From a virus (taxonomy: Duplodnaviria; Heunggongvirae; Uroviricota; Caudoviricetes): DNA of 64,000 bases. The notes under the pieces were generated by a model. The model made no database searches. It was given only the letters and a program-made list of their open reading frames with translations, and had not been told where the DNA came from. The stretch's first letter is position 1, and every line of letters starts with the position of its first letter. Positions 25,303 through 58,824 of this stretch are shown piece by piece. A program made the translations under genes and the position numbers. The stretch lies in the IMG/VR virus record IMGVR_UViG_3300037424_001372, positions 204,837-268,836 of that record; one strand, written 5' to 3'.

Positions 25303-25443
25303 AAAAATTTAAAATTTAATTATAAATACTGTAACAATTATAAATATTGTTCGTAATATTATAAAAAAAATTGTATGAAAACTAATAAAAATATTAACGA
25401 ATCCCCCTCAAAAGATTTGATTATCGTGAGGGGGATTCCGTAA

Positions 25444-25803
25444 GTGCCGGGGGCAGGTAAATCGACTTTTGCATCATTGTTAGGTAGGGCAATTTGTTCT
25501 GCTGATGATTATCACATTAAGGACGGAAAATATACTTGGAAAGCCGAAAAGGTTGAAAATGCACATGAATGGTGTCAACGTAAGTGTAGATTATTCATGA
25601 AGAAACAAATTGACCGTATTGTGATAGCAAATACAAGCACAACCGAAAGAGAATTAAAACCTTATTATGACTTAGCTAGACAATTTAATTATAGAGTATT
25701 TAGCGTTATAGTCGAGAATCGAGCACTCACTAAAAACATTCACAATGTTCCTAACGAGACTATAGAAAAAATGAAAGATAGGTTCGACATCCGACTTATG
25801 TGA
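25444..25803 (+). CDS. P-loop kinase (AAA_33/polynucleotide-kinase-like)
   Basis: Walker A VPGAGKST at a GTG start. The N-terminal segment MKTNKNINESPSKDLIIVRGIP is encoded upstream (25377..25443) and separated by an in-frame TAA. Confidence 0.55.
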   Translation: MPGAGKSTFASLLGRAICSADDYHIKDGKYTWKAEKVENAHEWCQRKCRLFMKKQIDRIVIANTSTTERELKPYYDLARQFNYRVFSVIVENRALTKNIHNVPNETIEKMKDRFDIRLM

Positions 25804-25839
25804 AATTTTATATTTGTAAAAGAATTATTATATATTAAT

Positions 25840-26403
25840 ATGAATGAGATAAATATTAAACAAATCATAAAACCAGAAAACGGCATCGAAGAAGCAATAA
25901 TCTCCGATGTTGAATTCATTTCAGGCGTTAATTATGGTAAGCCACGTCCGGGACATAAAGAGGGCAAGGTAATTTATCATATTAAAGAAGTATTAGATAA
26001 TATCGATAAGTTTTATGGTGATGATGAAGACCGTTCAAACTTACGATTAATTGCAATCTTACATGATACCTTTAAAAATAAGGTTAATCAAAATCTACCA
26101 AAATCAGGCAATAATCATCATGGCCATATTGCTCGAAGATTTGCTAAGAACTATATTTTAAACAATAATACCGTTTTAAATATAATTGAACATCATGATG
26201 ATGCATATAATGCTTGGTGTAAAGGTGATAGGCATGATAATTGGTTTGATGCAGGAAAACGTGCAAACACATTGATTCGTGGACTTCTTATTGAAGGAGA
26301 TTTGGATTTATATGTTAAATTTTATCGTTGTGATAATGCAACCGGTGATAAGAAACCGGATAGTTACAATTGGTTTAATTGGTTTGTTGAATTAATAAAA
26401 TAA
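25840..26403 (+). CDS. HD-domain phosphohydrolase
   Basis: LRLIAILHDTFK HD motif plus downstream His/Asp residues. Confidence 0.5.
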   Translation: MNEINIKQIIKPENGIEEAIISDVEFISGVNYGKPRPGHKEGKVIYHIKEVLDNIDKFYGDDEDRSNLRLIAILHDTFKNKVNQNLPKSGNNHHGHIARRFAKNYILNNNTVLNIIEHHDDAYNAWCKGDRHDNWFDAGKRANTLIRGLLIEGDLDLYVKFYRCDNATGDKKPDSYNWFNWFVELIK

Positions 26404-29418: not shown

Positions 29419-29596
29419 AAAAAACAATTATTTTAATGTTTATGACTGCGATTTTAGCAGTTTCTTGTACTCGAATTGATGCTGGTTATGAAGGATGGAA
29501 CAGATAAAGGCGTACAAGATGCTACTATGGTAACTGGTAGAGTTTGGTACAACCGTTCAAAAAATCCTACTAAATCTTACCAGATTCAATATTGAT
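29415..29596 (+). pseudogene. SPFH/band-7 lipoprotein gene, 5' fragment interrupted by IS element B1
   Basis: MKKTIILMFMTAILAVSCTRIDAGYEGWNR* then, after a frameshift, DGTDKGVQDATMVTGRVWYN..., ending exactly at the IS boundary. Confidence 0.4.
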
Positions 29597-30925: not shown

Positions 30926-31463
30926 TTAATGTCATCATATCGTTAACAAATTCATCACTATCAGAAATATTATTGTTTTCAATTCGTTCAATTTCAACCC
31001 CATAACTATTGAAAAAAGCATTAATTAGGTTATACTGAAATCTTGTTAATCTATCTTTATTTTCAATAACAACTTTAAATATTTTTTTATCGATAACTAA
31101 TTTAATTAAATTAACAAATCCACTTCTTGTATCAGATAAACCACTACCAGTATCTTTTATCTGATAATGAACACTATATTTCTTTTTAGCACAGTATTCG
31201 CTTAAACGTTGTGATTGTCTATCTAAATCACCCTTTTGTTTTTGATCATATGAACTAACACGAGAATATGTTGCAACGGCATCAATAATAATTTCTTTTT
31301 TATATTCTCCAATATAATTCAAAATATCTTCTTCTCGATAACGTCTATGACCACCAATTGTTTTAATTGATTTTAGTTTATCTTCTACATCCCAATTTCG
31401 TAGTGAATGTTTAGACACTCCAAGTATTTCAGATGCCTTATTTAATGATATTAGTTTACTCAT
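30849..31463 (-). CDS. tnpA: IS607-family serine recombinase TnpA (MerR-like HTH plus resolvase catalytic domain)
   Basis: N-terminal HTH (ASEILGVSKHSLRNW), resolvase core (YSRVSSYDQ...DRQ) and 77-nt overlap with tnpB. Confidence 0.85.
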   Translation of the reverse strand: MSKLISLNKASEILGVSKHSLRNWDVEDKLKSIKTIGGHRRYREEDILNYIGEYKKEIIIDAVATYSRVSSYDQKQKGDLDRQSQRLSEYCAKKKYSVHYQIKDTGSGLSDTRSGFVNLIKLVIDKKIFKVVIENKDRLTRFQYNLINAFFNSYGVEIERIENNNISDSDEFVNDMMTLIASFSSKLYGRRSHQNKKKKSEENN

Positions 31464-37121: not shown

Positions 37122-37345
37122 ATACACAGAAAAACCATGAAATTGGTTTACGATTTTAATAATCGATGGGATCGCTGATAATCCCCCCTATCCCATCTGT
37201 GAAAACATTTGGGATTGCTTTTCTTAAAATTAAAAAATAGTAAATTACATTAAAATAATTTACTATTTTTTAATACAGTCTGTAATCAACATGTTAAAAT
37301 ATCGCAATTGTTCAACGAAACCCACATAAAATTATGTAAGTCCCG
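37114..37345 (-). mobile_element. miniature (MITE-like) derivative of A-type IS607: right end fused to left end, no ORFs
   Basis: 37114..37230 matches 44129..44250 (tnpB 3'/right end with GGGAT...ATCCC hairpin). 37250..37345 matches 46070..46120 (left end TTTACTATTTTTAATACAGTSTGTAAT). Confidence 0.6.
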
Positions 37346-41710: not shown

Positions 41711-42196
41711 TTAAATTGAATTATTTCTTAAATAATCTCTAACTTCCATCAATACTTTCCCCAATAGATTCTGGCCACGCCATTTAGTTTCATCATAAAT
41801 TTCAGGACTATTTTCCTCCAACCCAATACCCCAAATATTGTCATTAGGATTTACTTCAACAAGTATCTTATCTCCTGTCGATAATAATTTAGTTTTTAAA
41901 TCTTCGTTTTGCGTATATTTACAAAGATTTGCTTGAAACATCGCTTGGCATCTAACTTTAGACCATTCCTCGTCATTATAGTTTTTAACTTGTCTTCCCA
42001 ATGCTTTTGCTTCATAAGGAACAGGTGTATTTAATATTTTATTAGCAATTTCGATATCTTCGAAAAATAATGCTTTATGATATATAAACATTTGTTCAGT
42101 ATTTTTGAAAACATTATCATTTGAAAAAATTTCACAATGTTTAAAATTGCTCAGCCATTCTTTTAAAAAGAATATATGCGTGTTTGTTTCTTTCAT
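41711..42196 (-). CDS. NADAR-family protein (YbiA-like N-glycosidase / ADP-ribosyl-DNA hydrolase family)
   Basis: C-terminal NIWGIGLEE...WRGQNLLGKVLMEVRDYL matches the NADAR signature (WG.G...G.N.LG..LM.VR..L). Confidence 0.65.
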   Translation of the reverse strand: MKETNTHIFFLKEWLSNFKHCEIFSNDNVFKNTEQMFIYHKALFFEDIEIANKILNTPVPYEAKALGRQVKNYNDEEWSKVRCQAMFQANLCKYTQNEDLKTKLLSTGDKILVEVNPNDNIWGIGLEENSPEIYDETKWRGQNLLGKVLMEVRDYLRNNSI

Positions 42197-44153: not shown

Positions 44154-44168
44154 AGAAAATCCATGAAA

Positions 44169-45437
44169 TTAGTTTACGATTTTAATAATCGATGGGATTA
44201 CTGATAATCCCTCTATCCCATCTGTGAAAACATTTGGGACTGCTTTTCTTAATATATTATAACTTCCGTTCACATCGGCATTAATTACCTTATCTTCTCC
44301 CTTAATCTTATATAATCCCCTACATTTACGGTAGTCAGAGAACGAAGGTTCTTCGTTTATCTTTCCGTAAATAGGGATGTTATCCATATTAAGAAATGAT
44401 GCTTTAGAGGTATAACTTTCCTCCTGAAGTATAATATTTATTCCAGCTTTTTCGCATTTATAAACAAGCATGTTTATAAATCTACTATGTGGAATGTTAA
44501 CGAAGTTCTGATTTGAGTTTTTACTCATATCTGTGGATTGTTTCCAACCATCGTTCTTACCGATTATCATGGTGTTTGTTTGTCTTTCTTTTGCAATATC
44601 TATAACCAACTTACTTGCTTTATGCAAATAATCATCAACCTTGCGGTTGCGTTTATTCGTCATTCTGCGAGTTCGATTGCTATGTTTCTCTTTATTTCTT
44701 TTTTCTAATATAGAATTATAATGTGCAATTTTTTTATTATAAAACTGATTCATGGATTTTAATGGTCTACCATTAATAATCATAGATTTAATTTCATTAA
44801 CATTGCTAGTTATTGTTGCTAAATTATTCACGCCTAAATCTAAACTCAAATAACGATTATTGTTTTGTAATTTAGATACGTCAGGTATTTGATAAACAAT
44901 CTCTATAACATAGTGATCTAATCGTGGAACGATTCTGACAATAAGTATATTTTCTTTTTTAGTTGTTAATTGTATATTAGTTTTAGATAATGCTAAAATA
45001 CCTTTTTTAAGAAATTTTTTAGAAATGGCACCTTTTTCATAAATGACAATGAATCTACCATCTTTTTTATCTAAATAAGAAGGTAATTTAGGAATGCCTT
45101 TATATTTAGCCGGATTTTTCTTATAATCTCTAATAGAAGCGAAAAACGATTTCCAATTTCTATCCAAAACCATTAAGGTTTGGTTTGAAACCTTAAGTGG
45201 AAGTTGATACATATCGAATTGTTTATCATCTACAAGAAGCCTATTAATATCATTATAATTAAGATAATTAGCAAAGGAACGAGTTCCTTCTTGTTTTTCT
45301 TTTGATGTTTGAATAAATTCTTGTCTAATAATATGATTGGCGTAATTATATAGATTTTTAGATTTAAAACACACGCTATCACATTCAGCGTACAATGCTG
45401 AATTTTTATTGATGATATGTTTTTCTACTAATCTCAT
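44169..45437 (-). CDS. tnpB: TnpB/OrfB RuvC-like nuclease, A-type copy 2
   Basis: 422 aa, homologous to 160..1377, with ADVNGSYNILRKA tail and no Zn-ribbon cysteines. Confidence 0.85.
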   Translation of the reverse strand: MRLVEKHIINKNSALYAECDSVCFKSKNLYNYANHIIRQEFIQTSKEKQEGTRSFANYLNYNDINRLLVDDKQFDMYQLPLKVSNQTLMVLDRNWKSFFASIRDYKKNPAKYKGIPKLPSYLDKKDGRFIVIYEKGAISKKFLKKGILALSKTNIQLTTKKENILIVRIVPRLDHYVIEIVYQIPDVSKLQNNNRYLSLDLGVNNLATITSNVNEIKSMIINGRPLKSMNQFYNKKIAHYNSILEKRNKEKHSNRTRRMTNKRNRKVDDYLHKASKLVIDIAKERQTNTMIIGKNDGWKQSTDMSKNSNQNFVNIPHSRFINMLVYKCEKAGINIILQEESYTSKASFLNMDNIPIYGKINEEPSFSDYRKCRGLYKIKGEDKVINADVNGSYNILRKAVPNVFTDGIEGLSVIPSIIKIVN

Positions 45438-45439
45438 AT

Positions 45440-46006
45440 TTATTTTTCTAAAAATTTAATTATTTCTTCTTTGTTTTTCTTTTTTCTTAAACCATACATT
45501 CTTGCAGAAAATGAATATATGATAGAAATTAAATCTTGCATTAAATCGGTCTTATCATCATCAACTCTATTGACTACTAAAATTTTTTTATTATTTAAAG
45601 TAAGTAGTTTTTCAATATAATTAAACCCGAAACGGGTTAGTCTGTCTTTATTTTCAACGATTAACGCATCCCAATCATTTTGTTGTAAAAGTTTAATAAG
45701 TTTAGGTCTATGGTCGTTAAGACCGGAACCGATTTCTTTAATGTTGTAAATAATATCATAACCATTATTAATACAATAATTAACCATTCTTTCTGATTGT
45801 CTATCTAAGTTATCTTTTCTATCGGAATTAGATACTCTGGAATAAATAGCTGCTTTTTTACCATTATCAAATTCTGGGACTTTAATACAAACATGTCCAG
45901 TTTTATCAATAAAACAATTATCTATTTTTCCTGCCTTATATCTATTCCACGCTGTTCTATATGTGACATTAAATTTTTTAGCGTAGTCTGATAATTTATA
46001 ATACAT
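45440..46006 (-). CDS. tnpA: IS607-family serine recombinase TnpA (MerR-like HTH plus resolvase domain)
   Basis: YSRVSNSDRKDNLDRQ catalytic core with N-terminal HTH. Stop lies 2 nt before the tnpB start. Confidence 0.85.
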   Translation of the reverse strand: MYYKLSDYAKKFNVTYRTAWNRYKAGKIDNCFIDKTGHVCIKVPEFDNGKKAAIYSRVSNSDRKDNLDRQSERMVNYCINNGYDIIYNIKEIGSGLNDHRPKLIKLLQQNDWDALIVENKDRLTRFGFNYIEKLLTLNNKKILVVNRVDDDKTDLMQDLISIIYSFSARMYGLRKKKNKEEIIKFLEK

Positions 46007-46106
46007 TATTTTTATTATTTTAATATAAATAGTTTTTATTTTAAAAAAAGATGTGAAAATTTTAAATTATTTTACTATAATTTACTATTTTTAATACAGT
46101 GTGTAA

Positions 46107-46262
46107 TTAACATAAGTCCATTTCATGTGAGTCAAATCCCCAAGAAATGTTAGGGACTATAATGTTTTGCCTTATGCCGAAATGTTTAGCAATAACCACT
46201 TCAATTTCTGCTGTGGTGATTGGTTTTGGTTTATTTCTATTTCTATTTCCCTTAATGCCCAT
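46107..46262 (-). pseudogene. PD-(D/E)xK nuclease-like gene fragment truncated by insertion of IS A2
   Basis: MGIKGNRNRNKPKPITTAEIEVVIAKHFGIRQNIIVPNISWGFDSHEMD then runs straight into the IS left end. Confidence 0.4.
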
Positions 46263-46527
46263 TTAAACAACCGTTTTTTGGTAAATCAACTACTTGTAAT
46301 TGACTAACAACAACCTTAGTATTTTGTTTGAGAAGTTCCTTTCTTACAACAAATTCTGAATTGAATTTTTCTCTGAAATTTTTTTCACTACCATAATCAT
46401 GAACATCATTTTCCAATTTCATCTCAACTTCAAAACCATTTTCAATAAAAAATCTTTCGAGCAATAATGCCATCGTTGATTTTCCGCTCGCAGTTTCACC
46501 TGCAACAATAATTTGTAGATTTTTCAT
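46252..46527 (-). CDS. small P-loop NTPase/kinase-like protein
   Basis: Walker A GETASGKST. Only 91 aa. Confidence 0.45.
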   Translation of the reverse strand: MKNLQIIVAGETASGKSTMALLLERFFIENGFEVEMKLENDVHDYGSEKNFREKFNSEFVVRKELLKQNTKVVVSQLQVVDLPKNGCLNGH

Positions 46528-46541
46528 ATTATTTTTTATAA

Positions 46542-47126
46542 TTACTTATCAAATATTGATTTAAATATTTTGCGTAAATTATCCAAAGTAATTACCTCTT
46601 TAGTATCTTCATGCAAAACATTGGTATATTTTTTAAATAAAATGTATACTGATTCAGCATAACAATCATCAAACACTTGAATCGATGCATATTTCCAATC
46701 ACGATTTTTATTTGCTTGTGGGTCACTGATAATATCTGCAAGATAATTTAAAGTTACTTTAAGTATATCGGTAATATTAAAATTCTTTGTTTTAAATTTT
46801 TTCCATTCATTTCCGCATTTATTACAATGATTAACTTCCAAAGTATCAATATTCAACGTTGTTTTAATTGTTCCAAATCCCAAATAAAACGTTTCATTGA
46901 CCTTCATATTACCTTGAACTTGTCTAACCTTATCTACGATATTTATTTTACCTGTGTTACATTTAGGGCAATAATTATTATGAGATAATTGATTTTCCTT
47001 TTGTTCTTCAGACTCAATATCAGCTATTTTACCACATCTTTCAACAATAATTTTAACATCGCCAATAAGTTTCTGCTTTTGAATATCGGTAGGTATGTAC
47101 AATAATTTGCGAAAATTCAAATTCAT
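46542..47126 (-). CDS. zinc-finger protein
   Basis: YCPKCNTGK and HCNKCGNEW motifs. Confidence 0.4.
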   Translation of the reverse strand: MNLNFRKLLYIPTDIQKQKLIGDVKIIVERCGKIADIESEEQKENQLSHNNYCPKCNTGKINIVDKVRQVQGNMKVNETFYLGFGTIKTTLNIDTLEVNHCNKCGNEWKKFKTKNFNITDILKVTLNYLADIISDPQANKNRDWKYASIQVFDDCYAESVYILFKKYTNVLHEDTKEVITLDNLRKIFKSIFDK

Positions 47127-47701
47127 TATGCTAATTTTTTATCCATTATCAATTGACGAAGAAATACATTCTTAACTCCACCAATCAATCTTACCCATTC
47201 CTTATAATAATCCGGGAATATTTCTTGTTGTTTTTCAAAACTTTGACTTCTCAACATCAATTCGTTTTCACTTGACATTTCAAGTAATGCTTCTGGTGAC
47301 ATTTTACTCAAAATAAAATCATAAAAATGTGGATATTTTTTATAATTGAAAACCCTTTCATCAACAATAAAACACAATGCAGTTAATGCATCATTTAAAT
47401 CGGGTTCAAAAAAGAAAGAAAATTCAACATCATTTTCTTGAAGTTCATCACCAATTTTATTTAGACTTCCAAAAGGAATTGATTCTAAATCTCTATTACT
47501 ATTAGTTGTTCCACCATTAAGTACAATCCAAGTTTTCCAATTATTAACAAAATCTTGAAATAGTTCAGTGTTACCATATTTATTAGCATACTCAAGAGCA
47601 GCATGTCCACATTGAATACCTTTAGAAATTCCCTGAAGTGAAGATATTACAAAAAAATACATTCTCAATTCCAATTCTTCGTTTTGTTCTATGTTCATCA
47701 T
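47126..47701 (-). CDS. peptidyl-tRNA hydrolase PTH2-like domain protein
   Basis: ISKGIQCGHAALEY resembles the PTH2 GKGK(I/V)AAQC(S/G)HAA motif. Extra C-terminal domain of about 70 aa. Confidence 0.45.
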   Translation of the reverse strand: MMNIEQNEELELRMYFFVISSLQGISKGIQCGHAALEYANKYGNTELFQDFVNNWKTWIVLNGGTTNSNRDLESIPFGSLNKIGDELQENDVEFSFFFEPDLNDALTALCFIVDERVFNYKKYPHFYDFILSKMSPEALLEMSSENELMLRSQSFEKQQEIFPDYYKEWVRLIGGVKNVFLRQLIMDKKLA

Positions 47702-47913
47702 AATTAATTTTCAATTTTACAAATATATGAATTTTGAAATTAAAATCAATATATTATTTATAAATTATTAGTTGAATATTTCATTAAGCTATTAACTACA
47801 TTAGAATTATTAATAATTGTCATTGCTTCAGTTGCTAATGTTAGTTCAGCAATTCTCTATTTAATTTCCTCAGTTTCTTCTAATGATTGAAGATATATTA
47901 ATCTTTTGTTCTA

Positions 47914-48432
47914 TCATATAGTTCGTTCATATGTAGTATGTTTGTAATTCAAACCTTGTGAACTTTTAATCCAAGAACAATCATCAATAATTTGAAAATC
48001 ATGAAATAACTTATCAATCGGGAAGAATTTATCACCCTCTTTAATTAAAATATCAACCCATGAAATAATTGCTTCATTACAATGATCAATTAATTGTTCA
48101 TAAATTTGAGAACCCCCTGCAATATAAATTGTTTTACCATTAAAATCTTCATTAGAATCGAAGTATTCTAACAACTCATTTACTGATGTAAATTGATTTG
48201 GGTAATATTTATCAGAATTAAGATTTCGAGATAACACATAGTATTCACGATTCTTTTTAGCTACTTCTGGTAATAAATCATATGTTTTAGAACTAATTAT
48301 AATGTGATTACCAGTAGTAACACTCTTATAATGATTTAAATCTTCTGGAATATACCAAGGAATATTATTACCTACTCCAATAATACCATCCAAACTTACT
48401 GCTGCGATTATTGATAACTTATACTTTCTCAT
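47914..48432 (-). CDS. dihydrofolate reductase
   Basis: IAAVSLDGIIGVGNNIPW, SSKTYDLLP and YIAGGSQIYEQL match DHFR motifs. Confidence 0.85.
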   Translation of the reverse strand: MRKYKLSIIAAVSLDGIIGVGNNIPWYIPEDLNHYKSVTTGNHIIISSKTYDLLPEVAKKNREYYVLSRNLNSDKYYPNQFTSVNELLEYFDSNEDFNGKTIYIAGGSQIYEQLIDHCNEAIISWVDILIKEGDKFFPIDKLFHDFQIIDDCSWIKSSQGLNYKHTTYERTI

Positions 48433-48434
48433 TA

Positions 48435-48985
48435 TTAATTGTTTTCATTATTAACTATCCAACGATTAAGATGTTGAGCTTCGATTTGAGGCGTAAAATC
48501 AGCATCGCCCATATCTGAAACAGGTATTTCAAAAAATATTGTTTTATATATGATTATTGGTTCAGATTCAACACTAATTTTAGCATCATAATAAGCAACA
48601 CCTTTTCTTATACATAATAATTCTGCTATTGGTTTTTGTTTGTAAAGCAATTTTTTAATTTCAGTTGTTGTCATAATTAATTTGATTTTTTGTTTGTTAA
48701 CATCATTATAAATTGCTGATTTCTTATCAGCACTATATAATATCAAAGTAATTTCATCACTTTGAGTATAACCTATCACAGCATTGGTCTCTTCTACCAA
48801 AAATTTGGTGGTTTCATCATCAAATCGCTCAAATTTTCATCAAACGGACGATTTAAGCCCTTTACATATTGAGAGAAATTGCCGCCATCAAGTCTAATAA
48901 TAACAGGAAGAGTCGGAATCATTACATCTGGTGAAAAGTTTTTTTCTAAAAATTTACACCAACCTCCAAGATTTTTAAATTCCAT
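48435..48985 (-). pseudogene. Thg1-like protein (tRNA-His guanylyltransferase family), split by a frameshift near 48795..48805
   Basis: Upstream ORF has PVIIRLDGGNFSQYVKGLNRPFDENLSDLMMK (Thg1 VVRIDG.NFH.F....F.KP.D motif). Downstream ORF continues with AVIGYTQSDEITLIL (Thg1 IAYGVSDEYSFVF). Confidence 0.55.
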
Positions 48986-49301
48986 AATTTAATTTAATTT
49001 TTAAAATACTATTTTCAATATCATCTAACACAATTTCGCAGTTATTGTAATTTAATTTACTAATATCAAAATAATCAACATCAGCATTACGATACCTTGC
49101 TTTAATTAATATTTCATTAACATAAACTTCAGTATATTTCATTATTTTCTTGTAATACGATTCTTTTGTTGTATGTTTTGGATTACGAATATTCCAAGCA
49201 TCTAACATTGATTTCATGTCAGTAATATTTCCTAATTCAATTACATTTTCAAGAATAATATTCCCAAAATTAATCATATCAGATTCATCATATGTTCTCA
49301 T
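48975..49301 (-). CDS. hypothetical protein
   Basis: 108-aa ORF. Confidence 0.45.
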   Translation of the reverse strand: MRTYDESDMINFGNIILENVIELGNITDMKSMLDAWNIRNPKHTTKESYYKKIMKYTEVYVNEILIKARYRNADVDYFDISKLNYNNCEIVLDDIENSILKIKLNYGI

Positions 49302-49302
49302 A

Positions 49303-49506
49303 TTATTTATTTTTTCCTAAAATATTAAAAATATCTTTAAAATCACCAAGTAAATCACTAAATAAATCATCATTTTTTATTTCTTCAACTTTATGAAAAA
49401 TAATTCGTTTCTCAATCTGTTCATTAGCTTCCTTTTCAGATTTAGCAAGAACAGTTGTTTTCATTTTTCTTCCATAAAATTCAAAAAGTATTTGATATTT
49501 TTTCAT
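49303..49506 (-). CDS. hypothetical protein (start taken at internal ATG; the annotated upstream extension is IS-remnant derived)
   Basis: MKKYQILFEFYGRK... The track ORF start at 49542 is a TTG inside the IS right-end remnant. Confidence 0.35.
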   Translation of the reverse strand: MKKYQILFEFYGRKMKTTVLAKSEKEANEQIEKRIIFHKVEEIKNDDLFSDLLGDFKDIFNILGKNK

Positions 49507-49528
49507 TTTATTCAAATTTACTTTGACA

Positions 49529-49590
49529 GTATCTAAAGACAAAATTAGATTACGATTTTAATAATTGATGGGATTGCTTTTTTTTAAGCG
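49529..49590 (-). mobile_element. degenerate A-type IS right-end remnant with internal deletions
   Basis: GTATCTAAAGACAAAATTAGATTACGATTTTAATAATTGATGGGATTGCTTTT aligns to 44129..44250 with two gaps. Confidence 0.55.
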
Positions 49591-49650
49591 ATGTTTTTTT
49601 TTTAATTATAAGAAAAATTTAAATTATTTTATTATAATTTATTAGTTTTA

Positions 49651-50205
49651 TCACTTCTTTTCAAATGGATCAACACCATCATTTTCCTCACCAGTTTCAA
49701 AAGCTTCTTTAGTTTTAGCACTTGTCACAAGTTTAATTTCCAAATCAGGTTTATTACCAAGAACCAAACTATTAGGAAAAGTAACTTTCATCGATTTAAG
49801 TTCCCTATCAATATCAATTAGTTTCTTTTGTTCCATAGTAAACTCGTTACGACTACCTTCAATAGTATTCATTACGGTTTTAAATAAACTTGCATCAAAC
49901 TCGGGATTTGATTCTGTAATCCATTTCATAAGAGTTTCTTTACCTGCACCAGCATCGTTTTTATAACGAGCATCCATGATTTCAACATAAACCTCTTTAA
50001 AACTTGATTTATATTCGGCAGCAACACCTGCTTGTCCTGAAATTTTCTTCCAAGTGTTATCAAACACTATTTCAGAATTTTTCTGAGCAGCACGACCTGT
50101 TTCAAGTTTCACATTATAGGTGTTTGAAAGACCTATTGCCCAAAAAGCAATAATTGCACCCAAAATACCAATACTAATTAAAGTAATAATTGTACCTTTA
50201 CCCAT
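49651..50205 (-). CDS. LemA-like membrane protein
   Basis: N-terminal TM followed by a LemA-like region with conserved R...ARY segment. Confidence 0.35.
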   Translation of the reverse strand: MGKGTIITLISIGILGAIIAFWAIGLSNTYNVKLETGRAAQKNSEIVFDNTWKKISGQAGVAAEYKSSFKEVYVEIMDARYKNDAGAGKETLMKWITESNPEFDASLFKTVMNTIEGSRNEFTMEQKKLIDIDRELKSMKVTFPNSLVLGNKPDLEIKLVTSAKTKEAFETGEENDGVDPFEKK

Positions 50206-50282
50206 TTTTTTAAATTTTATTTATTTAATTTTAAATTAATACGACAAATATATAAAATTGTTACAATGTCTTACTAAGATAG

Positions 50283-50468
50283 TCAACATTTTTTTTCAGT
50301 ATTATTCATTTCAATTTTTATCAAATCCAATAATGATTTCTTTAAATAAAATTCATTATCTTCATCAAAATATTGTTTGAGCATTACAACTAAATTCATA
50401 GGTGATGAGAGTTTATTACGAATATCGGCCCCAATCTCACCACCATCAAACACATTTAATTCAATCAT
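50283..50468 (-). CDS. hypothetical protein
   Basis: 61-aa ORF. Confidence 0.3.
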   Translation of the reverse strand: MIELNVFDGGEIGADIRNKLSSPMNLVVMLKQYFDEDNEFYLKKSLLDLIKIEMNNTEKKC

Positions 50469-50494
50469 TTCGATATTCGATATTTTTTTTATTA

Positions 50495-51409
50495 TTAATT
50501 AATACGATTACATAAAATACTAACTATGTTTTTATTCTCCCAATATGGAATTTTTAGTAAAGTAATCTCGTGCAATTTACAATATTTATTCTTAATATTA
50601 TCACATTTTTTCTGTGTTTTTAATATGTTTTCATTTGATATGCCTTTTAATACCTTATAATGATATTCACCTTGATATTCGATACACATATTAATATCGG
50701 GCAAATAAAAATCAAAACGTAGATTTTTAATGTTTTTACAATCATTAAACGAATGCTCATAAATGTAATTAATATTGTTATTCTCTAAATAACACTTAAT
50801 AGCATATTCACCTTTAGACATCTTACAATTAGGACATGGAGCATTTCGTTGATTTCGATAATGAACAGATTTTTCCCATTCATGACCACAAGTATTACAA
50901 AGCCACCAAAATTTTTTAGTTGTGTTCGATTGAATGTTTTCAGGACGTATAGGATAATTTCTATCGTAATTCCATTGTTTTGCAATATCTGGATTAATTA
51001 TTAGTGAATTATTGGCTTCATTAACCTTTCTTCCTGAACAATGTGGACAATCAAATAAATTTTTATTAGTAGTATTCCAAGACCTATCAAAAGTATAATT
51101 ACATAATAAACATTGCCATTTTAAATTACCTATCGAATTTTTATATATGTTACTAACTAATTGATACGATTTATTGTTCAATTTACACCAAAGTTTTATA
51201 TTATCAATGGTGTGTGAATTATTTTGACTAAAATAAATTGGCTTAGTGCTTCTAAGAATATTATTTATTCGAGTATTAATATGATATCCGTCAGAATTAG
51301 AAATGGTTATTTTTCCTTCATTGCCAATTGATTCAATACTAATCAAATTATAGCCCAACTGATTAACAACTTCAATAATCTTTTCCTTAGTATATTTATA
51401 TTGTTTCAT
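50495..51409 (-). CDS. tandem treble-clef Zn-ribbon protein with C-terminal DUF559/Vsr-like PD-(D/E)xK nuclease domain
   Basis: Repeated W.C..C...W....R.....CP.C units (WQCLLCNYTF...CPHC; WWLCNTCGHEW...CPNC). C-terminal FDFYLPD...CIEYQGEYH. Confidence 0.45.
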   Translation of the reverse strand: MKQYKYTKEKIIEVVNQLGYNLISIESIGNEGKITISNSDGYHINTRINNILRSTKPIYFSQNNSHTIDNIKLWCKLNNKSYQLVSNIYKNSIGNLKWQCLLCNYTFDRSWNTTNKNLFDCPHCSGRKVNEANNSLIINPDIAKQWNYDRNYPIRPENIQSNTTKKFWWLCNTCGHEWEKSVHYRNQRNAPCPNCKMSKGEYAIKCYLENNNINYIYEHSFNDCKNIKNLRFDFYLPDINMCIEYQGEYHYKVLKGISNENILKTQKKCDNIKNKYCKLHEITLLKIPYWENKNIVSILCNRIN

Positions 51410-51564
51410 TTTAATATGATTTGATTAAAATACTCTTGAAGTAACCAGTTAATTAGTTTAGATTTGTTTATATGTAAATCATTAAGTTGTTTATTAATAT
51501 CAGGATTGATGGTAATGGAAAATTTTATTTTCTTGTCTTCGAGATTCATAGTTTTTCTTGCCAT
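51406..51564 (-). CDS. ribbon-helix-helix (CopG-like) small DNA-binding protein
   Basis: MARKTMNLEDKKIKFSITINPDINKQLNDLHINKSKLINWLLQEYFNQIILK. Its stop overlaps the start of the nuclease gene (ATGA). Confidence 0.45.
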   Translation of the reverse strand: MARKTMNLEDKKIKFSITINPDINKQLNDLHINKSKLINWLLQEYFNQIILK

Positions 51565-51610
51565 AGTACTTGGTTTAACATAAATACTAAGAAAAAATGG
51601 AAAAGTATGA

Positions 51611-51775
51611 TTAATCCGACTTTTTGATCAATTTTTTTATATCTTTTTTATCTAACTTTATCCACTTATCTAATAATGAATTAATTAACTTAGACTTATT
51701 ATATTTCCCCTCCTCAAGTTTATCGTTAATTTCTTTATCGATAGATAGACCAATTTTTGTTTTGTTCTTGCTCAT
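51611..51775 (-). CDS. ribbon-helix-helix (CopG-like) small DNA-binding protein, paralog
   Basis: MSKNKTKIGLSIDKEINDKLEEGKYNKSKLINSLLDKWIKLDKKDIKKLIKKSD. Confidence 0.45.
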   Translation of the reverse strand: MSKNKTKIGLSIDKEINDKLEEGKYNKSKLINSLLDKWIKLDKKDIKKLIKKSD

Positions 51776-51808
51776 AATATAATTTTAATTTACACAAAAA
51801 TATATTTT

Positions 51809-52978
51809 CTATACATTTTCATTTGAAAATCCAAATCCTTTATCTGAATAAACTGGTAATACATCAGATATGTCACAATATTCACCAAATTCTTCATAAC
51901 TTACATTAGCAACACTATCTCCAATTGTAACTGGAATTTTTTCAGGAACTTGATCTAGGCATGTTACTACCAAATGTTTGTTATTAAACAAGTCAGGATT
52001 GTCAAACCTATCACAATTAATAGCATATTTTAGCATATCCAAATCCATCATTGCTTTTCTGAATTCACCTTGAAATCCCAATACATTGGTTTCTAAAGGA
52101 TTTTCTTTAATAAAAGATATATCCATACTTTCATTGCTCAAGAACCCATTACCATGACGAGTTTGATATGCTCTTGTGATGTAATATGTATTAATATTGG
52201 AAATAACACCTTTCAAATTATACTTATCAATGAGTTCGATAGCGTTTTTTGCTACGGTGTTACTTCGAGTAACGTGTGGAAAAAAACCATAATCTTTATC
52301 CAACATAATACCTTGACTACCCTCAAAAATAATGTTATTAAAACCCTTAACAACACTAAAATCATCAACAATTTGATATTTTTTCACCAAATCATCACAA
52401 GCAGTGATAAATTTATGATAAAGTTCATCAGTAATTTTATATTTTGCTTCAAATGGGTTTTTTGGATTGTATGCATGTTGATAATAACTGTTGATTATTA
52501 ATCTTAATTTTTCATTTCTAATTTTAGGATATAACAAATCTCTTGCAAACAAACGAAAATGGTCTTCGTTTCGTTGAATTGTAGTACCAAATCCTACACC
52601 AACACTACCATGTTTAGTAGTATCATCCAATATTCTATTTTTTAGAATATCAAATGGAGTGGTTATCATAGCATTTGAATTAATGAACAATTGAGGTTCA
52701 AAACCAGTAATCCTTAAAATATCGCCCTCACGTTGAATACCAACAGGGTCTAATGTGCAATATTCAGACCAATAAGTTGGAGCATTTTGAAGTGTTCCTG
52801 AACCAAAATTTGAAAATATGTGTCTAGTATCGTCAACAACAACAGTATGTCCGATTTGGTGACCACCACTGAATCTAACTACCAATGGATTGTCTCGTGT
52901 TGAACATAAATAATTGACAAATGAACCCTTACCCTCATCACCGTATAATGCACCGAGTATTATAAAAGCATTTCCCAT
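51809..52978 (-). CDS. adenylosuccinate synthetase (PurA)-family protein, short divergent form (PurZ-like candidate)
   Basis: GDEGKGS P-loop, GGHQIGHT and FEGSQG motifs. 389 aa. The Arg-rich TTGRRRR loop is replaced by GFQGEFRK. Confidence 0.7.
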   Translation of the reverse strand: MGNAFIILGALYGDEGKGSFVNYLCSTRDNPLVVRFSGGHQIGHTVVVDDTRHIFSNFGSGTLQNAPTYWSEYCTLDPVGIQREGDILRITGFEPQLFINSNAMITTPFDILKNRILDDTTKHGSVGVGFGTTIQRNEDHFRLFARDLLYPKIRNEKLRLIINSYYQHAYNPKNPFEAKYKITDELYHKFITACDDLVKKYQIVDDFSVVKGFNNIIFEGSQGIMLDKDYGFFPHVTRSNTVAKNAIELIDKYNLKGVISNINTYYITRAYQTRHGNGFLSNESMDISFIKENPLETNVLGFQGEFRKAMMDLDMLKYAINCDRFDNPDLFNNKHLVVTCLDQVPEKIPVTIGDSVANVSYEEFGEYCDISDVLPVYSDKGFGFSNENV

Positions 52979-53021
52979 ATATTTTTTTAATAAATTTACG
53001 AAAAAAAATAAACTTTGTTAC

Positions 53022-53058
53022 AAAAAAAAAGTGAGTTAAGCAATTAACTCACTTTTTA
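53022..53058 (-). terminator. rho-independent terminator
   Basis: AAAAAGTGAGTTAA-gcaa-TTAACTCACTTTTT. Confidence 0.6.
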
Positions 53059-53075
53059 GAAAACATGTTAGATTA

Positions 53076-53996
53076 TTACAATTTGATGATACCGTGGTCA
53101 TTAACTGATACGATTTCACCTTTGACTACAGTTGCCAAAGCAGTTGTCACAGCACTAGCAATTTTAGAATCAAATTTGCTTGTTACTTTAGCCATATCAA
53201 CACCATGTTGCACAGCAATCAATGTTGCAATGGTAGCACAAATAGCATGATAATCTTCAAGAACAATCAATCTTTCACCAAGCATTTTCTTCCAATAACC
53301 CAAAACTTGAGGGTCATTACGGTAACTTGCCTCATTTACGTGGATATGGTACACGTTATAAAGTCTTTGTGCTTCTTCAAGTAATTGGAAATCACTAACA
53401 TCTTCTGCTTGTGAATAACCTAATATGTCTTTCAAAGAATCTGCATCGACTTTATCCCAAGACATTTCATCACCAATAGTAATTAAAAAACCTTTTTGAT
53501 TACGTTTTTCAAAACAATCGATAGAAGTATGTCTACCACCAATAAGCCAAGCCAATAAGTAACTTTCCATTTTGTTACCGCCGCCACCGCTTTGAATCGA
53601 TACACTTGTTAACCATTTGTCCAATTCCTCGGTACCGCTTTCAAATTGACCTATTTGAAGAGGTGTCCTGATATAACGGTGGTCATTAATTGCACCGAAA
53701 AGAATTTGTGGATGAAGTACACCATTATCAATAATAGTGTTCATTAAAGTAGGAAGTTCGTTTTTAACAATATCTTCTGGAATTCGACCCATACTACCAG
53801 TATCATCCAAGAAAATCGCTACGGCAAGTGATTCAGGATGTGCATCACTATCACGAGATTCTCTTACTGTAATACCAACTGGGAGCATGTCTTTCTTAGC
53901 TGTTTTAGAAAAAATCTTATCAGCACTTTTTGTTGCATAACTTTTACTTGAACTCAAGGAAGCATATGTATCATCAGACCAACCACTATAACCCAT
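53076..53996 (-). CDS. von Willebrand factor A (vWA) domain protein
   Basis: MIDAS motif in VAIFLDDTGSMG (D-x-T-x-S) and vWA-like alpha/beta core. Confidence 0.6.
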   Translation of the reverse strand: MGYSGWSDDTYASLSSSKSYATKSADKIFSKTAKKDMLPVGITVRESRDSDAHPESLAVAIFLDDTGSMGRIPEDIVKNELPTLMNTIIDNGVLHPQILFGAINDHRYIRTPLQIGQFESGTEELDKWLTSVSIQSGGGGNKMESYLLAWLIGGRHTSIDCFEKRNQKGFLITIGDEMSWDKVDADSLKDILGYSQAEDVSDFQLLEEAQRLYNVYHIHVNEASYRNDPQVLGYWKKMLGERLIVLEDYHAICATIATLIAVQHGVDMAKVTSKFDSKIASAVTTALATVVKGEIVSVNDHGIIKL

Positions 53997-54001
53997 AATA
54001 A

Positions 54002-54157
54002 TTAGGCTTTAGCTGTTTCGTCACAAGTACAATCGTCACATTGTTCATCGCAACAATTTTCGGTTATTTCAGTTACTTCAGTTGCTGGTGCAACCGGTGC
54101 ACTCATTTCGCTTTCCATGTCTTCGAAAGACTTAGCATTTGTGTTGTTCATTCCCAT
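54002..54157 (-). CDS. small acidic Cys-rich peptide (51 aa) upstream of the vWA gene
   Basis: MGMNNTNAKSFEDMESEMSAPVAPATEVTEITENCCDEQCDDCTCDETAKA. Not in the ORF track because it is under 60 aa. Confidence 0.4.
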   Translation of the reverse strand: MGMNNTNAKSFEDMESEMSAPVAPATEVTEITENCCDEQCDDCTCDETAKA

Positions 54158-54234
54158 AATAATAAAAATTTAAGTTTTAATAATAAAAATATGTATTCTT
54201 CGAGATACAATGTTACGAAACTAATTTTGATTTG

Positions 54235-54630
54235 TTACAACCTTTTAAAAATTTCTTCAATTCCTTTTTTTATTGCAATTTCTTGTGCTTTATAATATGT
54301 ATCATATTCTTCATCTAAGAAATCGCCATTACAATGTGGTATATAACAATCAATTTCAGATAAACCAATGGCTTTATTAATAAATAAAGGTATTGCCCTA
54401 ACTACAATATTATGATTATCCCTTAACCAATCAATTGCTTGTTGCCAAGTTTGAGCAAGTATTGATAATTCATCTTGCCTAATTGATTTTTTAATATATA
54501 ACGAACCTTCAGTTAAATCATATTTCCATCCTTCTGATGAGATATAATGCCCCAAACATTCCTCATTAAAACCCAATTCTTTTAATGCTTTGGCAATTTC
54601 ATAATTAACAAATTGTTTTTGTGTTTTCAT
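54235..54630 (-). CDS. hypothetical protein
   Basis: 131-aa ORF. Confidence 0.45.
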   Translation of the reverse strand: MKTQKQFVNYEIAKALKELGFNEECLGHYISSEGWKYDLTEGSLYIKKSIRQDELSILAQTWQQAIDWLRDNHNIVVRAIPLFINKAIGLSEIDCYIPHCNGDFLDEEYDTYYKAQEIAIKKGIEEIFKRL

Positions 54631-55511
54631 ATATCTAACGTATAAAATTTCTTCTCAAAATTTTTCTTTAACAATGCACGATATTTTTCATAATCACCAA
54701 ACTCATTCTGATGTTTAGTTAATAAGAACGTTAACATTTCTTGATTAACATCCTTATCTCTTTTCAACGCAGTTCCGCCAGCAGATTTATCACCCAACAA
54801 ATATATTGCAATTTTCTTACATAATTCTAAATCAATATCAGGTGTTGCAATTTTTTGACTAAATAATGTGGTTGGATACCACATTTTATATTTTGCACTG
54901 ATTGTTGTTGCTTTTTCATCCAATGGTGTCATGTGATAAAATGACGTAATAATAATACCGTGGGTTTCAGGAACAACAAAAACTGTTGTGGGATTCATAC
55001 CTATATGAGAATAACCAAGATTTCTAAACCACAACGATACTTCCATCATTCTGCTCATTATCCAATTAACATGTTCTTGTGGCAATTTCAAACCAGTTAA
55101 AGGTATTGAACTGTCTTTAAACTCAACAATTAATAAATCGTTATTAATTTTCATGCTTTCAGGCAAATATTTATGAAAATTAATTGATGTACCATCTTTT
55201 TTAGATTTCAATATTTTGAAATTCTCAAATGATTTCCTAATTAATTCCCTATTAGTATCAGTAATATTAAACACAATTTTTTTATCGAAGACTTTAAAAT
55301 CACCTGATTCGTCAGTTAACACAGTACCGTTTTCAATTAAATCCTTATATTGATTAATCCTTGACATTGCCTCAGCAGCTTTAGGATTTGAATTATAGTC
55401 AGGATGTAATATTTTTGAATAATTAATATAAGTCTTTTTCCAATTATCTTGGAAAATATCTGATGGTTTTTTTGAATTGAGAACATTATCTATTAATTGA
55501 ATATCTGTCAT
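54627..55511 (-). CDS. hypothetical protein with possible N-terminal J-domain
   Basis: YSKILHPDYNSNPKAAEAMSRINQYKDLI contains an HPD tripeptide in a J-domain-like context. Confidence 0.35.
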   Translation of the reverse strand: MTDIQLIDNVLNSKKPSDIFQDNWKKTYINYSKILHPDYNSNPKAAEAMSRINQYKDLIENGTVLTDESGDFKVFDKKIVFNITDTNRELIRKSFENFKILKSKKDGTSINFHKYLPESMKINNDLLIVEFKDSSIPLTGLKLPQEHVNWIMSRMMEVSLWFRNLGYSHIGMNPTTVFVVPETHGIIITSFYHMTPLDEKATTISAKYKMWYPTTLFSQKIATPDIDLELCKKIAIYLLGDKSAGGTALKRDKDVNQEMLTFLLTKHQNEFGDYEKYRALLKKNFEKKFYTLDI

Positions 55512-55739
55512 TGTATTTAAAATGTTTTATGTGTTAAAAATCTTTTTATGTTATAATAAGTAGTATAAACATACTTGCTGACGTTATACAACATAATAAC
55601 TATTATTCCACTTTCGATTTTCTATATAGGTATGTTGGATTTCCTAATAATTTCATTAATGTATTACATCATTTTTTTAACATATTTAATGTGTTTTAAC
55701 ATATTCTCTTATACAATAACTTGACAGTTAAGTAGTCAG

Positions 55740-56147
55740 TTATTGACAATACTGAAACATTGCACTATAAAAAGTCTGTGCCATAATTTCAAATTGTTCC
55801 AACGTAATGTTCTTACTAACAGTTAAATCAATTCTTCCATCAATATCAATAAACATACATTCAAATTGAACTCCAATTCGTTCAGCGATATTAAATTGAT
55901 TTTGATATTTTCTAAAATCATAGAAAAATAAACCAACTTGATAGGCCTTGTTTTCATTTATGTCAAATGATTTCCAATATGCAAAATCTTCATTTTTAAA
56001 ATTTTGATTATATTTCCAATATCCTAATTCTTTTAATGAAGCTTCCGTTTTTTCCAACCATTCATCCCAAGAAGTGCAGCCACTAACCTTAGCTATAAGT
56101 AAGGGCGGGTTTATCGGTAATTGTTGTGTGGTATCTTTTATTGTCAT
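55740..56147 (-). CDS. hypothetical protein
   Basis: 135-aa ORF. Confidence 0.45.
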   Translation of the reverse strand: MTIKDTTQQLPINPPLLIAKVSGCTSWDEWLEKTEASLKELGYWKYNQNFKNEDFAYWKSFDINENKAYQVGLFFYDFRKYQNQFNIAERIGVQFECMFIDIDGRIDLTVSKNITLEQFEIMAQTFYSAMFQYCQ

Positions 56148-56249
56148 TTATGTTAAATTTAATGTAAATTGTTTTAAACCACTTATAGTGGAAAGACTAT
56201 TGCATATAAATTAAATACATTTTTTTACTATCAATAGTTATCATTCTGT

Positions 56250-56699
56250 TTAAAAAGCCTTGCCGTGCTTATGTGGTCGGAGAGAATTATATCTTATTTT
56301 TGCTTTAATATGACTTTCAATGTCAATTTCTTTGAAAGCACATAATTCAAGAACTCGAATAATAACATCCGCAAGTTCATCTTCAAAAGTGTTTTTCACT
56401 CTCTTCTCAAATTGATTTTTAAAAAATTGATCATCGTTAAAAGTCGAACCATAATTTTTATCTGCCATTCCTTTGATAAACCACTTTTGTTCATCAATAC
56501 AATTTGAATAATAGCCATTAGTTCTTACTGCTTCCAGAGCCTCTGATACTTCTGAGTGAATAAGGCAAAGCATTTCACCTAAATTCTTTTCGTTGTCGAA
56601 AAAGCCTTTTGATTTAGCGTTTTCGTGAATTTGTTTCGATAATTCGTTTAGCATATCTATTTGATTTAAAAAGTAATTAGCCAAAACCTCCATACTCAA
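56250..56699 (-). CDS. MazG-like nucleotide pyrophosphohydrolase (dimeric all-alpha NTP-PPase)
   Basis: LCLIHSEVSEALEAVR and EDELADVIIRVLELCAFKEIDIE motifs. Confidence 0.55.
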   Translation of the reverse strand: MSMEVLANYFLNQIDMLNELSKQIHENAKSKGFFDNEKNLGEMLCLIHSEVSEALEAVRTNGYYSNCIDEQKWFIKGMADKNYGSTFNDDQFFKNQFEKRVKNTFEDELADVIIRVLELCAFKEIDIESHIKAKIRYNSLRPHKHGKAF

Positions 56700-57000
56700 C
56701 TTGTTTATTTAATTCTTTATGGCAAATTTTACATACAGTTATTATGATATATTCCGATCTATCTAAATATCCTCCTTCAATATATTCTTCTTTTTTAATT
56801 GTTTCATCATGTATGCAAATTTGTTTCAGTTCAGCCTTTTTTGTATTTATTTCATTTATTAACCTACCCAGTCTACGCTCTAAACGGTTGATGTGGTTGT
56901 GTAAAACCAATGCCTCACCATTTTCTTCGTTAATAAGTTTGTCTGTTTTAGTTTTAATATGTGTATTCATTTGATTATGTTCGTGTTGACAACATTTCAT
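56677..57000 (-). CDS. hypothetical Cys/His-containing protein
   Basis: 107-aa ORF. Confidence 0.4.
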   Translation of the reverse strand: MKCCQHEHNQMNTHIKTKTDKLINEENGEALVLHNHINRLERRLGRLINEINTKKAELKQICIHDETIKKEEYIEGGYLDRSEYIIITVCKICHKELNKQVEYGGFG

Positions 57001-57011
57001 ATCCTCAACAG

Positions 57012-57230
57012 TTAATGCAAATTTTCTTCAGTATCTTTAATGTAAACTTCCATAAAAAATTGAAGTTCTGCTCTACTAATATATTCAGGTAATCCCTTTT
57101 CAACCTTTTTATCTAAAAATTGATGTAGGACTTTCAAACTTTCTTTCATTCCTAATACAATTCCATCATTTACACATGAAAGTGCAAACGAAGTATTGGC
57201 GTTATTGTTATTCTCTAATGCGTTTTCCAT
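57012..57230 (-). CDS. hypothetical protein
   Basis: 72-aa ORF. Confidence 0.35.
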   Translation of the reverse strand: MENALENNNNANTSFALSCVNDGIVLGMKESLKVLHQFLDKKVEKGLPEYISRAELQFFMEVYIKDTEENLH

Positions 57231-57311
57231 AATTTTATATTAAATAAGTTCTTGTTCGATTGGATATAACGAACCTTTTGCACATCTATTTTATCTATGG
57301 GAGAAATCATT

Positions 57312-57728
57312 TCAAGGTTTCCAATTTGGTGGGTGTTTATTAAACTTATTAAAGTATTCTGCATCAAGTTCATCTAATAATCTAAAACATCTATTTTTCA
57401 ATATTGAATATGGATGGTGTAAACTATCATAATGGTCAAGCCATATCTTTTTACATAATTCAGGTGCTTTAATATACTTCATCTTATACATTTCCTCAAG
57501 TTCATTTTCAATATCGAAAACAGACATTGAGAGTCTTCCAACATAATCAAGTATTTTAATGATATGTTCATAATACCTTAAATGCAGTTCATTGTTGATT
57601 GATTTTTGTTCTTTAATTATTAATAATTCCTCTTTAAATTTTTCAATGACTTCTTCTGCCTCAAACAATTCATTTTCGTGATTAGGTAGGTTAAAGTCGT
57701 GTACAATGTAGTTTTCTTTATATAGCAT
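57312..57728 (-). CDS. hypothetical protein
   Basis: 138-aa ORF. Confidence 0.45.
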   Translation of the reverse strand: MLYKENYIVHDFNLPNHENELFEAEEVIEKFKEELLIIKEQKSINNELHLRYYEHIIKILDYVGRLSMSVFDIENELEEMYKMKYIKAPELCKKIWLDHYDSLHHPYSILKNRCFRLLDELDAEYFNKFNKHPPNWKP

Positions 57729-57812
57729 GTGACTTGGTATTAGTTATTATTGGGTTATTTTTTAATATTCTGGACATTATCTTATTGTTCATATGAATAA
57801 TTTTTAGATTCA

Positions 57813-58268
57813 TTATTTTAAATCGTAAACAGTAACATCTACCTCTACAACTTCTTTAATAATTGATTCAATAACATTCCAATCTCCACCACTTAAACCT
57901 GCCCCAAATCTGGGACAATGTATTGTTGCGTTATTCTTTTTAGCTTCCTCGTTAACTTTTTGTAAACAATTTTTAATTGCATCATATCTTACTGGTGGAA
58001 TACCGTTTATTGATCTAATATCATGTTGTCCAATCATATTAACTACAGTAATATCATTTTCTACAGGAACATATTGGACATTGCCCAAAATCATTTCTTC
58101 ATTGGACATTGCTCTATATGCTTTTTCAGGAGCAGCCCATTTTCTACTTAGCGATAATACGAAACCTGCGCCCCAACCACGAACATTATTACATATGTGC
58201 AATATGTATTTTTTTCCATCGCCTTGTGGATTTGTTGCATCACCAATTACATAAATTATTTTTTTCAT
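57813..58268 (-). CDS. macro-domain protein (ADP-ribose binding/hydrolase fold)
   Basis: IIYVIGDATNP...ILHICNNVRGWGAGFVLSL and ATIHCPRFGAGLSGGDWNVI fit macro-domain motifs. Confidence 0.5.
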   Translation of the reverse strand: MKKIIYVIGDATNPQGDGKKYILHICNNVRGWGAGFVLSLSRKWAAPEKAYRAMSNEEMILGNVQYVPVENDITVVNMIGQHDIRSINGIPPVRYDAIKNCLQKVNEEAKKNNATIHCPRFGAGLSGGDWNVIESIIKEVVEVDVTVYDLK

Positions 58269-58284
58269 GATATGTTATATTATA

Positions 58285-58824
58285 TTATAGTGTATCAATA
58301 TATTTATCAAATTTTTTAAGATGATTACTAATTGCCACAGATAATTCGAAAGCATCTACTTGACCAGTTGGTAATATATCATACAAATTATTTCTAATAT
58401 CAATAATTTCGTTCTTAATATCACGATTAATTAGTCTTATAATTTGATTTGATAGGGCATTACCACTATCTTTTTTCTGAATTGAAACAAGTACAATCTC
58501 TTCTGTTTCATTACCTTTATCATCTTTTTTTATTCTAACAATGGGTGTTGGGCTATACTTACGTACATTCTTACTTAATTTATAGTTTGAATTCGTGTTA
58601 TGTGACATCACAAAACCACCTACACATTTTTCTTTGAAAGAGCAACATTCTTCACGTTCAATCGCTTGTTCAATTTCCACAATAATGGCTCGATATGTGG
58701 CACTTGTTGTTAATAATCTTTCCTTTCTTAACATATCGTGCATACCACCATTATTTGTGTTCTTATCAATCAATTCATTAATTGATTTCAATTTCCTTTG
58801 ATAGTCATCTAATAATATTTTCAT
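58285..58824 (-). CDS. hypothetical protein
   Basis: 179-aa ORF. Confidence 0.45.
   Translation of the reverse strand: MKILLDDYQRKLKSINELIDKNTNNGGMHDMLRKERLLTTSATYRAIIVEIEQAIEREECCSFKEKCVGGFVMSHNTNSNYKLSKNVRKYSPTPIVRIKKDDKGNETEEIVLVSIQKKDSGNALSNQIIRLINRDIKNEIIDIRNNLYDILPTGQVDAFELSVAISNHLKKFDKYIDTL

Follow-up and report, generated by a model that had tools for sequence, protein, structure and literature searches.

The window analysed here is a stretch of 64,000 nucleotides (27% GC) that forms part of a 324,744-bp JGI contig, and its minus strand carries two overlapping open reading frames (ORFs) in different frames. The first, ORF-U (48985..48794), opens with an ATG and encodes 63 residues, MEFKNLGGWCKFLEKNFSPDVMIPTLPVIIRLDGGNFSQYVKGLNRPFDENLSDLMMKPPNFW, before a stop, and the second, ORF-D (48800..48435), encodes 121 residues, begins with ..VEETNAVIGYTQSDEITLILY and lies in the -1 frame relative to ORF-U. 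The earlier note on this DNA had recognised the Thg1 hallmark PVIIRLDGGNFSQYVKGLNRPFDENL in the upstream ORF and its continuation AVIGYTQSDEITLIL in the downstream ORF of another frame, and both strings are found exactly there; IMG annotates the 63-aa stub as 'tRNA(His) 5'-end guanylyltransferase'. The locus is indeed Thg1-like and frame-disrupted, as the joined translation matches the Pfam Thg1 family PF04446 (65.6 bits against a cut-off of 29.2, E 5e-18) and PHROG 4717 (tRNA-His guanylyltransferase; E 9e-28) far beyond chance. The corrected translation aligns with the Thg1/TLP families as had been anticipated, but only through the N-terminal part of the profiles, at positions 9-98 of 130 in PF04446 and 4-113 of 250 in PHROG 4717.

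A search of 5.8 billion proteins with the Thg1 query found 872 homologues. Among the 120 matches listed, most proteins have lengths of 266-303 residues (255-310 for 111 of them); they share 60-79% identity with the N-terminal part of the query and align only to its residues 1-101 to 1-137. At the DNA level, window positions 48999..48685 are 71-75% identical to the intact genes of four loci on viral contigs, L001-L004 (blastn). The first stretch of homology, codons 1-56, lies in the frame of ORF-U at 48818..48985 and carries R31 and D33 within an RLDGGNF motif, with 68-75% amino-acid identity to intact homologues (tblastn); the second, codons 58-101 (ETTKFLVEETNAVIGYTQSDEITLILYSADKKSAIYNDVNKQKI), lies in the -1 frame at 48684..48815 and carries D77, E78 and K100. 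The family is not as rare in viruses as the earlier note had supposed, since a tblastn match was obtained in 150 of 50,697 phage records.

Between these two stretches, the DNA alignment with the four intact genes contains a single 1-nt gap column in the window, and it falls in codon 57, of which only AT is left at 48816..48817, against ATT or GTT in the intact genes. The sequence at this place is TTG ATG A-T GAA ACC ACC AAA TTT TTG GTA in the window and ATG [A/G]TT GA[A/T] ACN ACN AAG TT[T/C] in the intact genes. In the protein alignment, the homologues keep LM[IV][ED]TTKFLVEETNAV across the break (that is, LM[IV][ED]TTKFLVEE), and of this conserved stretch, LM[IV][ED]TTKFLVEETNAVIGYTQSDE, the window encodes 'DLM' in the first frame, with 'ETTKFLVEE' following in the second. 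The frame change had been placed by the earlier note within a quoted string around 48795..48805; it does fall inside that string, at 48817-48816 and upstream of the T-run, 11-17 nt upstream of those coordinates, and the run AAATTTTTGG that occupies 48795..48805 is not the lesion site in the DNA alignment. Beyond the lesion, ORF-U continues out of frame through KPPNFW, where homologues read TTKF, to the TAG at 48796-48794, and this tail (48794..48815), judged by the alignment, is not ancestral coding sequence in the first frame. The Thg1 reading frame is interrupted by the codon-57 deletion, and the first frame ends at the TAG. Exact-pattern scans of metagenome_contigs and viral_contigs for the lesion returned 0 matches, whether or not the pattern included the missing base.

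Overlapping ORFs, of which the second lies in the -1 frame, are also the layout of programmed -1 ribosomal frameshifting, for which the A_AAA_AAG site of dnaX and the G/GT pair of phage tail assembly chaperones are familiar examples. The locus resembles such sites in one further respect, namely that the ORF overlap contains a canonical X_XXY_YYZ heptamer, A_AAT_TTT (48806-48800), which is in the zero frame and precedes the TAG by two codons; slippage there would yield one 183-aa fusion of the Thg1 fragment with a small protein. For the 85 nt downstream, the predicted fold is somewhat more stable than that of shuffled sequence (-18.7 kcal/mol, z = -2.8), with local hairpins only. However, a shift at the heptamer would give PPNF, whereas the -1 frame specifies the near-invariant TTKF from upstream of the heptamer onwards; the conserved frame changes at codon 57, which lacks a slippery sequence, and ETTKF, encoded upstream of the heptamer and across it, corresponds to codons 58-62. 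At the intact loci that were read, a single ORF encodes the homologue without a shift, and neither the shift site nor the two-ORF layout is kept in homologues, the broken relatives differing in both the position and the type of their lesions. Unlike at genuine recoding sites, the joined product here completes no family's protein: ~63% of the enzyme would be missing from it all the same, and its last 79 residues are those of an autonomous gene family. We therefore judge the heptamer (48800..48806 in the first frame) coincidental and recoding at this locus highly improbable.

The second departure from an intact gene is a truncation. Thg1 homology, at both the DNA and the protein level, stops abruptly at 48684/48685, after codon 101 (..NDVNKQKI) of ~270, so that the Thg1-derived sequence comprises only 48985..48684 (302 nt) and ~63% of the enzyme is gone. 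The C-terminal ~170 residues were absent from the 64-kb window in a tblastn search with six intact proteins (best E about 1). From the end of the homology, a 9-nt junction, AAATTAATT (48675..48683, minus strand), leads to the ATG of the next gene, and similarity in the alignment is lost after column 307; judging from the sequence, this junction would be the breakpoint of a 3' deletion. An exact-pattern scan for the join between Thg1 and the small gene gave 0 matches in metagenome_contigs and viral_contigs. A 14-nt direct repeat with 13 of 14 positions identical was also observed near this point, at 48633-48646 and 48687-48700; the copy in the small gene encodes ..YKQK.., the one at the extreme end of the Thg1 remnant ..NKQK.., and the remnant's unusual V96 and N97 substitutions raise the similarity of the two copies. 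The repeat may be chance or a trace of rearrangement; as it is not at the breakpoint, microhomology at the deletion junction was rejected as its role and it was treated as chance.

Nine bases past the end of Thg1 homology, the ATG at 48674 opens a reading frame (MTTTEIKKLLYKQKPIAELL...) that proves to be an intact 79-aa gene of 240 nt, MTTTEIKKLLYKQK... (48435..48674, minus strand), belonging to PHROG 20427. The downstream ORF had been taken as the continuation of Thg1, but two thirds of it are this unrelated small gene with its own ATG. The product aligns Met1-to-Met1 with an 89-aa standalone ORF on a 362-kb viral contig, L005 (55% identity, BLASTP E 4e-25), and in L008 and L011 the standalone ORFs, 68-70 aa long, share the MTTTEIKK start. 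A database search found 86 homologues, nearly all of 66-105 aa, at a coverage of 89-100%, and the match to PHROG 20427 has an E of 8e-4 for the window protein and 3e-7 for the L005 homologue. Residues 1-79 of the 48674..48435 product thus align with the standalone members of PHROG 20427 at full length and from start to start, and the difference is that only the ORF call in the window has a 42-aa N-terminal extension, which consists of Thg1 debris and a 3-codon linker. Because the remnant is in frame with the 79-aa gene, ORF finders fuse the two into the 121-aa ORF. One stretch that had been considered as diverged Thg1, residues 125-147 (ELL..VA.FDA.I), belongs to the 79-aa family (E 4e-25), and its match to Thg1 lacks significance (E 0.05).

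An AlphaFold2 model of the 79-aa protein (pLDDT 90, pTM 0.78, from a 57-sequence alignment) predicts a compact alpha/beta unit that would fold from residue 1; a Foldseek search of the model against PDB and BFVD gave nothing at E <= 0.001, and a Pfam search of the protein gave no match. In relatives, the 79-aa gene stands in varied contexts and not beside Thg1. For instance, in L020 (2152-2979) an IF3-like gene is followed by the 79-aa family gene, a 59-aa ORF and a cREC_REC-domain gene (Pfam), and in L008 (4001-4643) the family gene is directly followed by a 146-aa ORF, MKIKTLLWLDDY..., that looks REC-like by eye; a functional link with these neighbours is conceivable. On the strength of these alignments, the 121-aa 'hypothetical protein' should, for annotation, be taken as the 79-aa gene starting at 48674.

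The single-base break might alternatively be a sequencing or assembly error, in which case the true gene would be a 184-aa ORF made up of Thg1 codons 1-101, the 3-codon linker and the 79-aa protein. The lesion is indeed one base, the small gene continues the frame of the remnant, and the DNA is a metagenomic contig known here from its assembled consensus. However, the base is missing from a TT dinucleotide (ATT to AT) and not from a long homopolymer, and a second assembler gives an identical sequence: the Logan assembly of SRR12684511 is 100% identical to window positions 44488-58800 (14.3 kb) and includes both lesions, although the two assemblies may share reads. The identical short-junction join in both assemblies also speaks against a chimera. 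Restoring the base would leave the truncation at codon 101 in place, and therefore a base-calling error alone provides no explanation of the locus; we consider an error behind the frame break very unlikely.

Despite the break, the alignments show that the three active-site carboxylates, D33, D77 and E78, are kept in the remnant. In the TLP of Bacillus thuringiensis (BtTLP; PDB 4KGK/4KGM) the active-site carboxylates are D30, D75 and E76, and in hTHG1 they are D29, D76 and E77 (PMC3701042). The remnant retains, as R31, D33, D77, E78 and K100, the equivalents of BtTLP R28, D30, D75, E76 and K99. Loss of the catalytic carboxylates from the frameshift-corrected translation had been named as the observation that would speak against a Thg1 assignment; they are present and the assignment stands, but their presence is insufficient, as the rest of the catalytic core is missing. 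In BtTLP, R131 contacts the incoming NTP (PMC3701042), and its equivalent, with everything else past residue 101, is absent from the remnant. An intact homologue, P0030, aligns with the BtTLP structure 4KGK over residues 5-211 (E 1e-41), which indicates that the full catalytic core needs ~210 residues. Thus, whereas BtTLP has the complete core, the remnant comprises 101 of ~270 codons, is broken in frame at codon 57, and has neither the R131 equivalent nor the C-terminal half. On this comparison, 3'-5' nucleotidyl transfer, that is tRNA 5'-end addition, is predicted to be absent at the locus.

The constraint on the remnant was assessed over the first 101 residues, at the 48 positions where 111 full-length homologues show a conservation of at least 98%. 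Four of these near-invariant positions deviate in the remnant (G35, V41, V96 and N97), against a mean of 0.25 deviations and a maximum of 3 among the 111 homologues. This would amount to a modest relaxation of constraint, in the direction expected for a recently inactivated gene. The remnant is otherwise still well preserved, at 65-79% identity to homologues and free of additional stops in both used frames; its decay is therefore a recent one, or else the signs of relaxed constraint are modest. The retention of R31, D33, D77, E78 and K100 could also be read as the mark of a functional 'mini-Thg1', or of a split enzyme whose other half is encoded elsewhere, but no C-terminal half occurs within the 64 kb, the fragment is itself frame-broken, the R131 equivalent and all residues after 101 are missing, and drift has begun at near-invariant positions, so that we regard a working fragment as scarcely conceivable.

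The surroundings of the locus are those of a large phage rich in mobile elements. The window encodes a Dda-like helicase, an amidase endolysin, an endonuclease (PHROG 4645), an HD-domain protein, an adenylosuccinate synthetase and a DHFR. Two further genes are candidate counter-defence genes, namely a homologue of Tad3, the type I Thoeris inhibitor (17439-18053, plus strand; Pfam E 3.8e-23), and a NADAR-domain protein (41711-42196, minus strand; E 3e-47). Four TnpB genes (OrfB_IS605 plus a Cas12f1-like TNB domain) lie at 160-1377 (+), 29570-31463 (-), 35292-36512 (-) and 44169-46006 (-), a high density for 64 kb of phage DNA; two of the four are IS607-type elements, as they adjoin a serine-recombinase TnpA (Resolvase, in one case with a MerR/HTH domain).

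A repeat with a 37-nt core, whose copies differ by 3-4 mismatches, was observed at 49542-49578, 44166-44202 and 37140-37176 (plus-strand coordinates). The copies at 44.1 kb and 37.1 kb share ~100 nt, including a GATGGGAT..ATCCCATC hairpin, and since the 44.1-kb copy overlaps the 3' end of tnpB (44169-45437), it is probably an element end or a guide-RNA region. The shortened copy is intergenic, ~560 nt upstream of the Thg1 remnant. Rfam gave no match in the window, the repeat included, and a scan for promoters and terminators gave nothing above shuffled expectation. Two genes downstream of the remnant lies a 191-aa protein (47126-47701, minus strand) that matches PHROG 3668 'hydrolase' (E 2e-19) and has no Pfam match; its motif GISKGIQCGHAAL resembles peptidyl-tRNA hydrolase 2, a likeness seen by eye only.

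The earlier note had further suggested that the locus forms an RNA-repair module with a P-loop kinase and HD pair at 25377..26403. This is not borne out, as the pair lies on the opposite strand at a distance of 22 kb, its kinase ORF contains an in-frame stop, and no RNA ligase is detectable in the window, which also contains no tRNA genes. In the kinase ORF itself (25377-25803, plus strand) the stop is a TAA at 25441-25443, located just before the P-loop (..LIIVRGIP*VPGAGKST..), and when this codon is passed over the ORF matches AAA_33 at E 2e-7. Just upstream of this TAA lies a perfect 12-bp GC-rich inverted repeat, GAATCCCCCTCA / TGAGGGGGATTC (25400-25411 and 25428-25439), unusual for a genome of 27% GC. 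The kinase ORF may be a second disrupted gene, or it may restart at a GTG at 25444.

Based on these findings, we propose that the locus is very probably a non-functional pseudogene remnant of a bacterial-type TLP gene in an AT-rich jumbo phage of ~325 kb. Three options had been offered for the break, a sequencing error, a programmed frameshift and recent pseudogenisation, and it is the last of these that the evidence favours. Two lesions are visible. A 1-nt deletion in codon 57 shifts the frame by -1, and a deletion or replacement probably removed everything after codon 101, ~170 codons including the equivalent of BtTLP R131 and the entire C-terminal half. That function was lost is inferred, as are the order in which the two lesions arose and their mechanism. 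By coincidence, the truncated remnant stands in frame with the next gene, the 79-aa gene with its own ATG. From such a locus, at most a 63-aa peptide and an independent 79-aa protein would be made. An intact second TLP copy is possible in the contig's ~260 kb outside the window, and the status of this locus would be the same either way. The locus is thus not to be annotated as a Thg1/TLP enzyme, nor to be listed as a candidate recoding site, and it illustrates that two ORFs carrying one family's motifs in different frames can hide a truncation and a neighbour gene.

Searches for the closest relatives of this region gave little: no match to 47000-50500 among INPHARED phages (blastn), no related loci via the DHFR, no homologue of the upstream 108-aa protein but itself, and no synteny with the viral contigs that carry intact TLP genes. 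Thg1 is sporadic in jumbo phages, where it is part of phage RNA-repair toolkits (PMC7824862). The window gene belongs to the same family (PHROG 4717) as the Thg1/TLP genes of Pseudomonas phage 201phi2-1, Caulobacter phage CcrColossus and Pectobacterium phage CBB, with 32-46% identity (tblastn), and likewise resides in a large phage, but it differs in being a decayed fragment in a window with no RNA ligase or tRNA gene. Among the loci with intact genes, L003 has an HNH-RNA ligase directly upstream of the TLP gene, and in L004 the TLP gene lies between an Rnl1-type ligase on its upstream side and an HD_4 protein on its downstream side, with another ligase close by; such neighbourhoods fit the published RNA-repair-toolkit view (PMC7824862).

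The TLP gene is highly conserved, at 60-79% identity across many uncultured large phages, and yet it has been broken independently in at least six lineages. Besides the window, these are L012-L015 from four samples (codon 138, one C added in a C-run), L016 and L017 (codon 149, a 2-nt deletion), L026 (codon 113, one C added), L025 (codon 218, GAG to TAG) and L018 (an in-frame internal deletion of about residues 130-213), and two of the relatives' lesions recur across several samples. As the lesions differ in position and type, they indicate recurrent decay and not a conserved recoding site. This suggests that the TLP gene is often gained and lost in related phages, and the independent lesions fit the reported sporadic distribution of Thg1 in jumbo phages (PMC7824862). 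The repeated loss might even reflect selection against the gene rather than mere dispensability, which we think unlikely; a possible cause would be that a host defence senses or exploits the TLP product or its activity. If so, a conflict over the repair of tRNA 5' ends would still be under way, and the window's remnant would be one of its traces.
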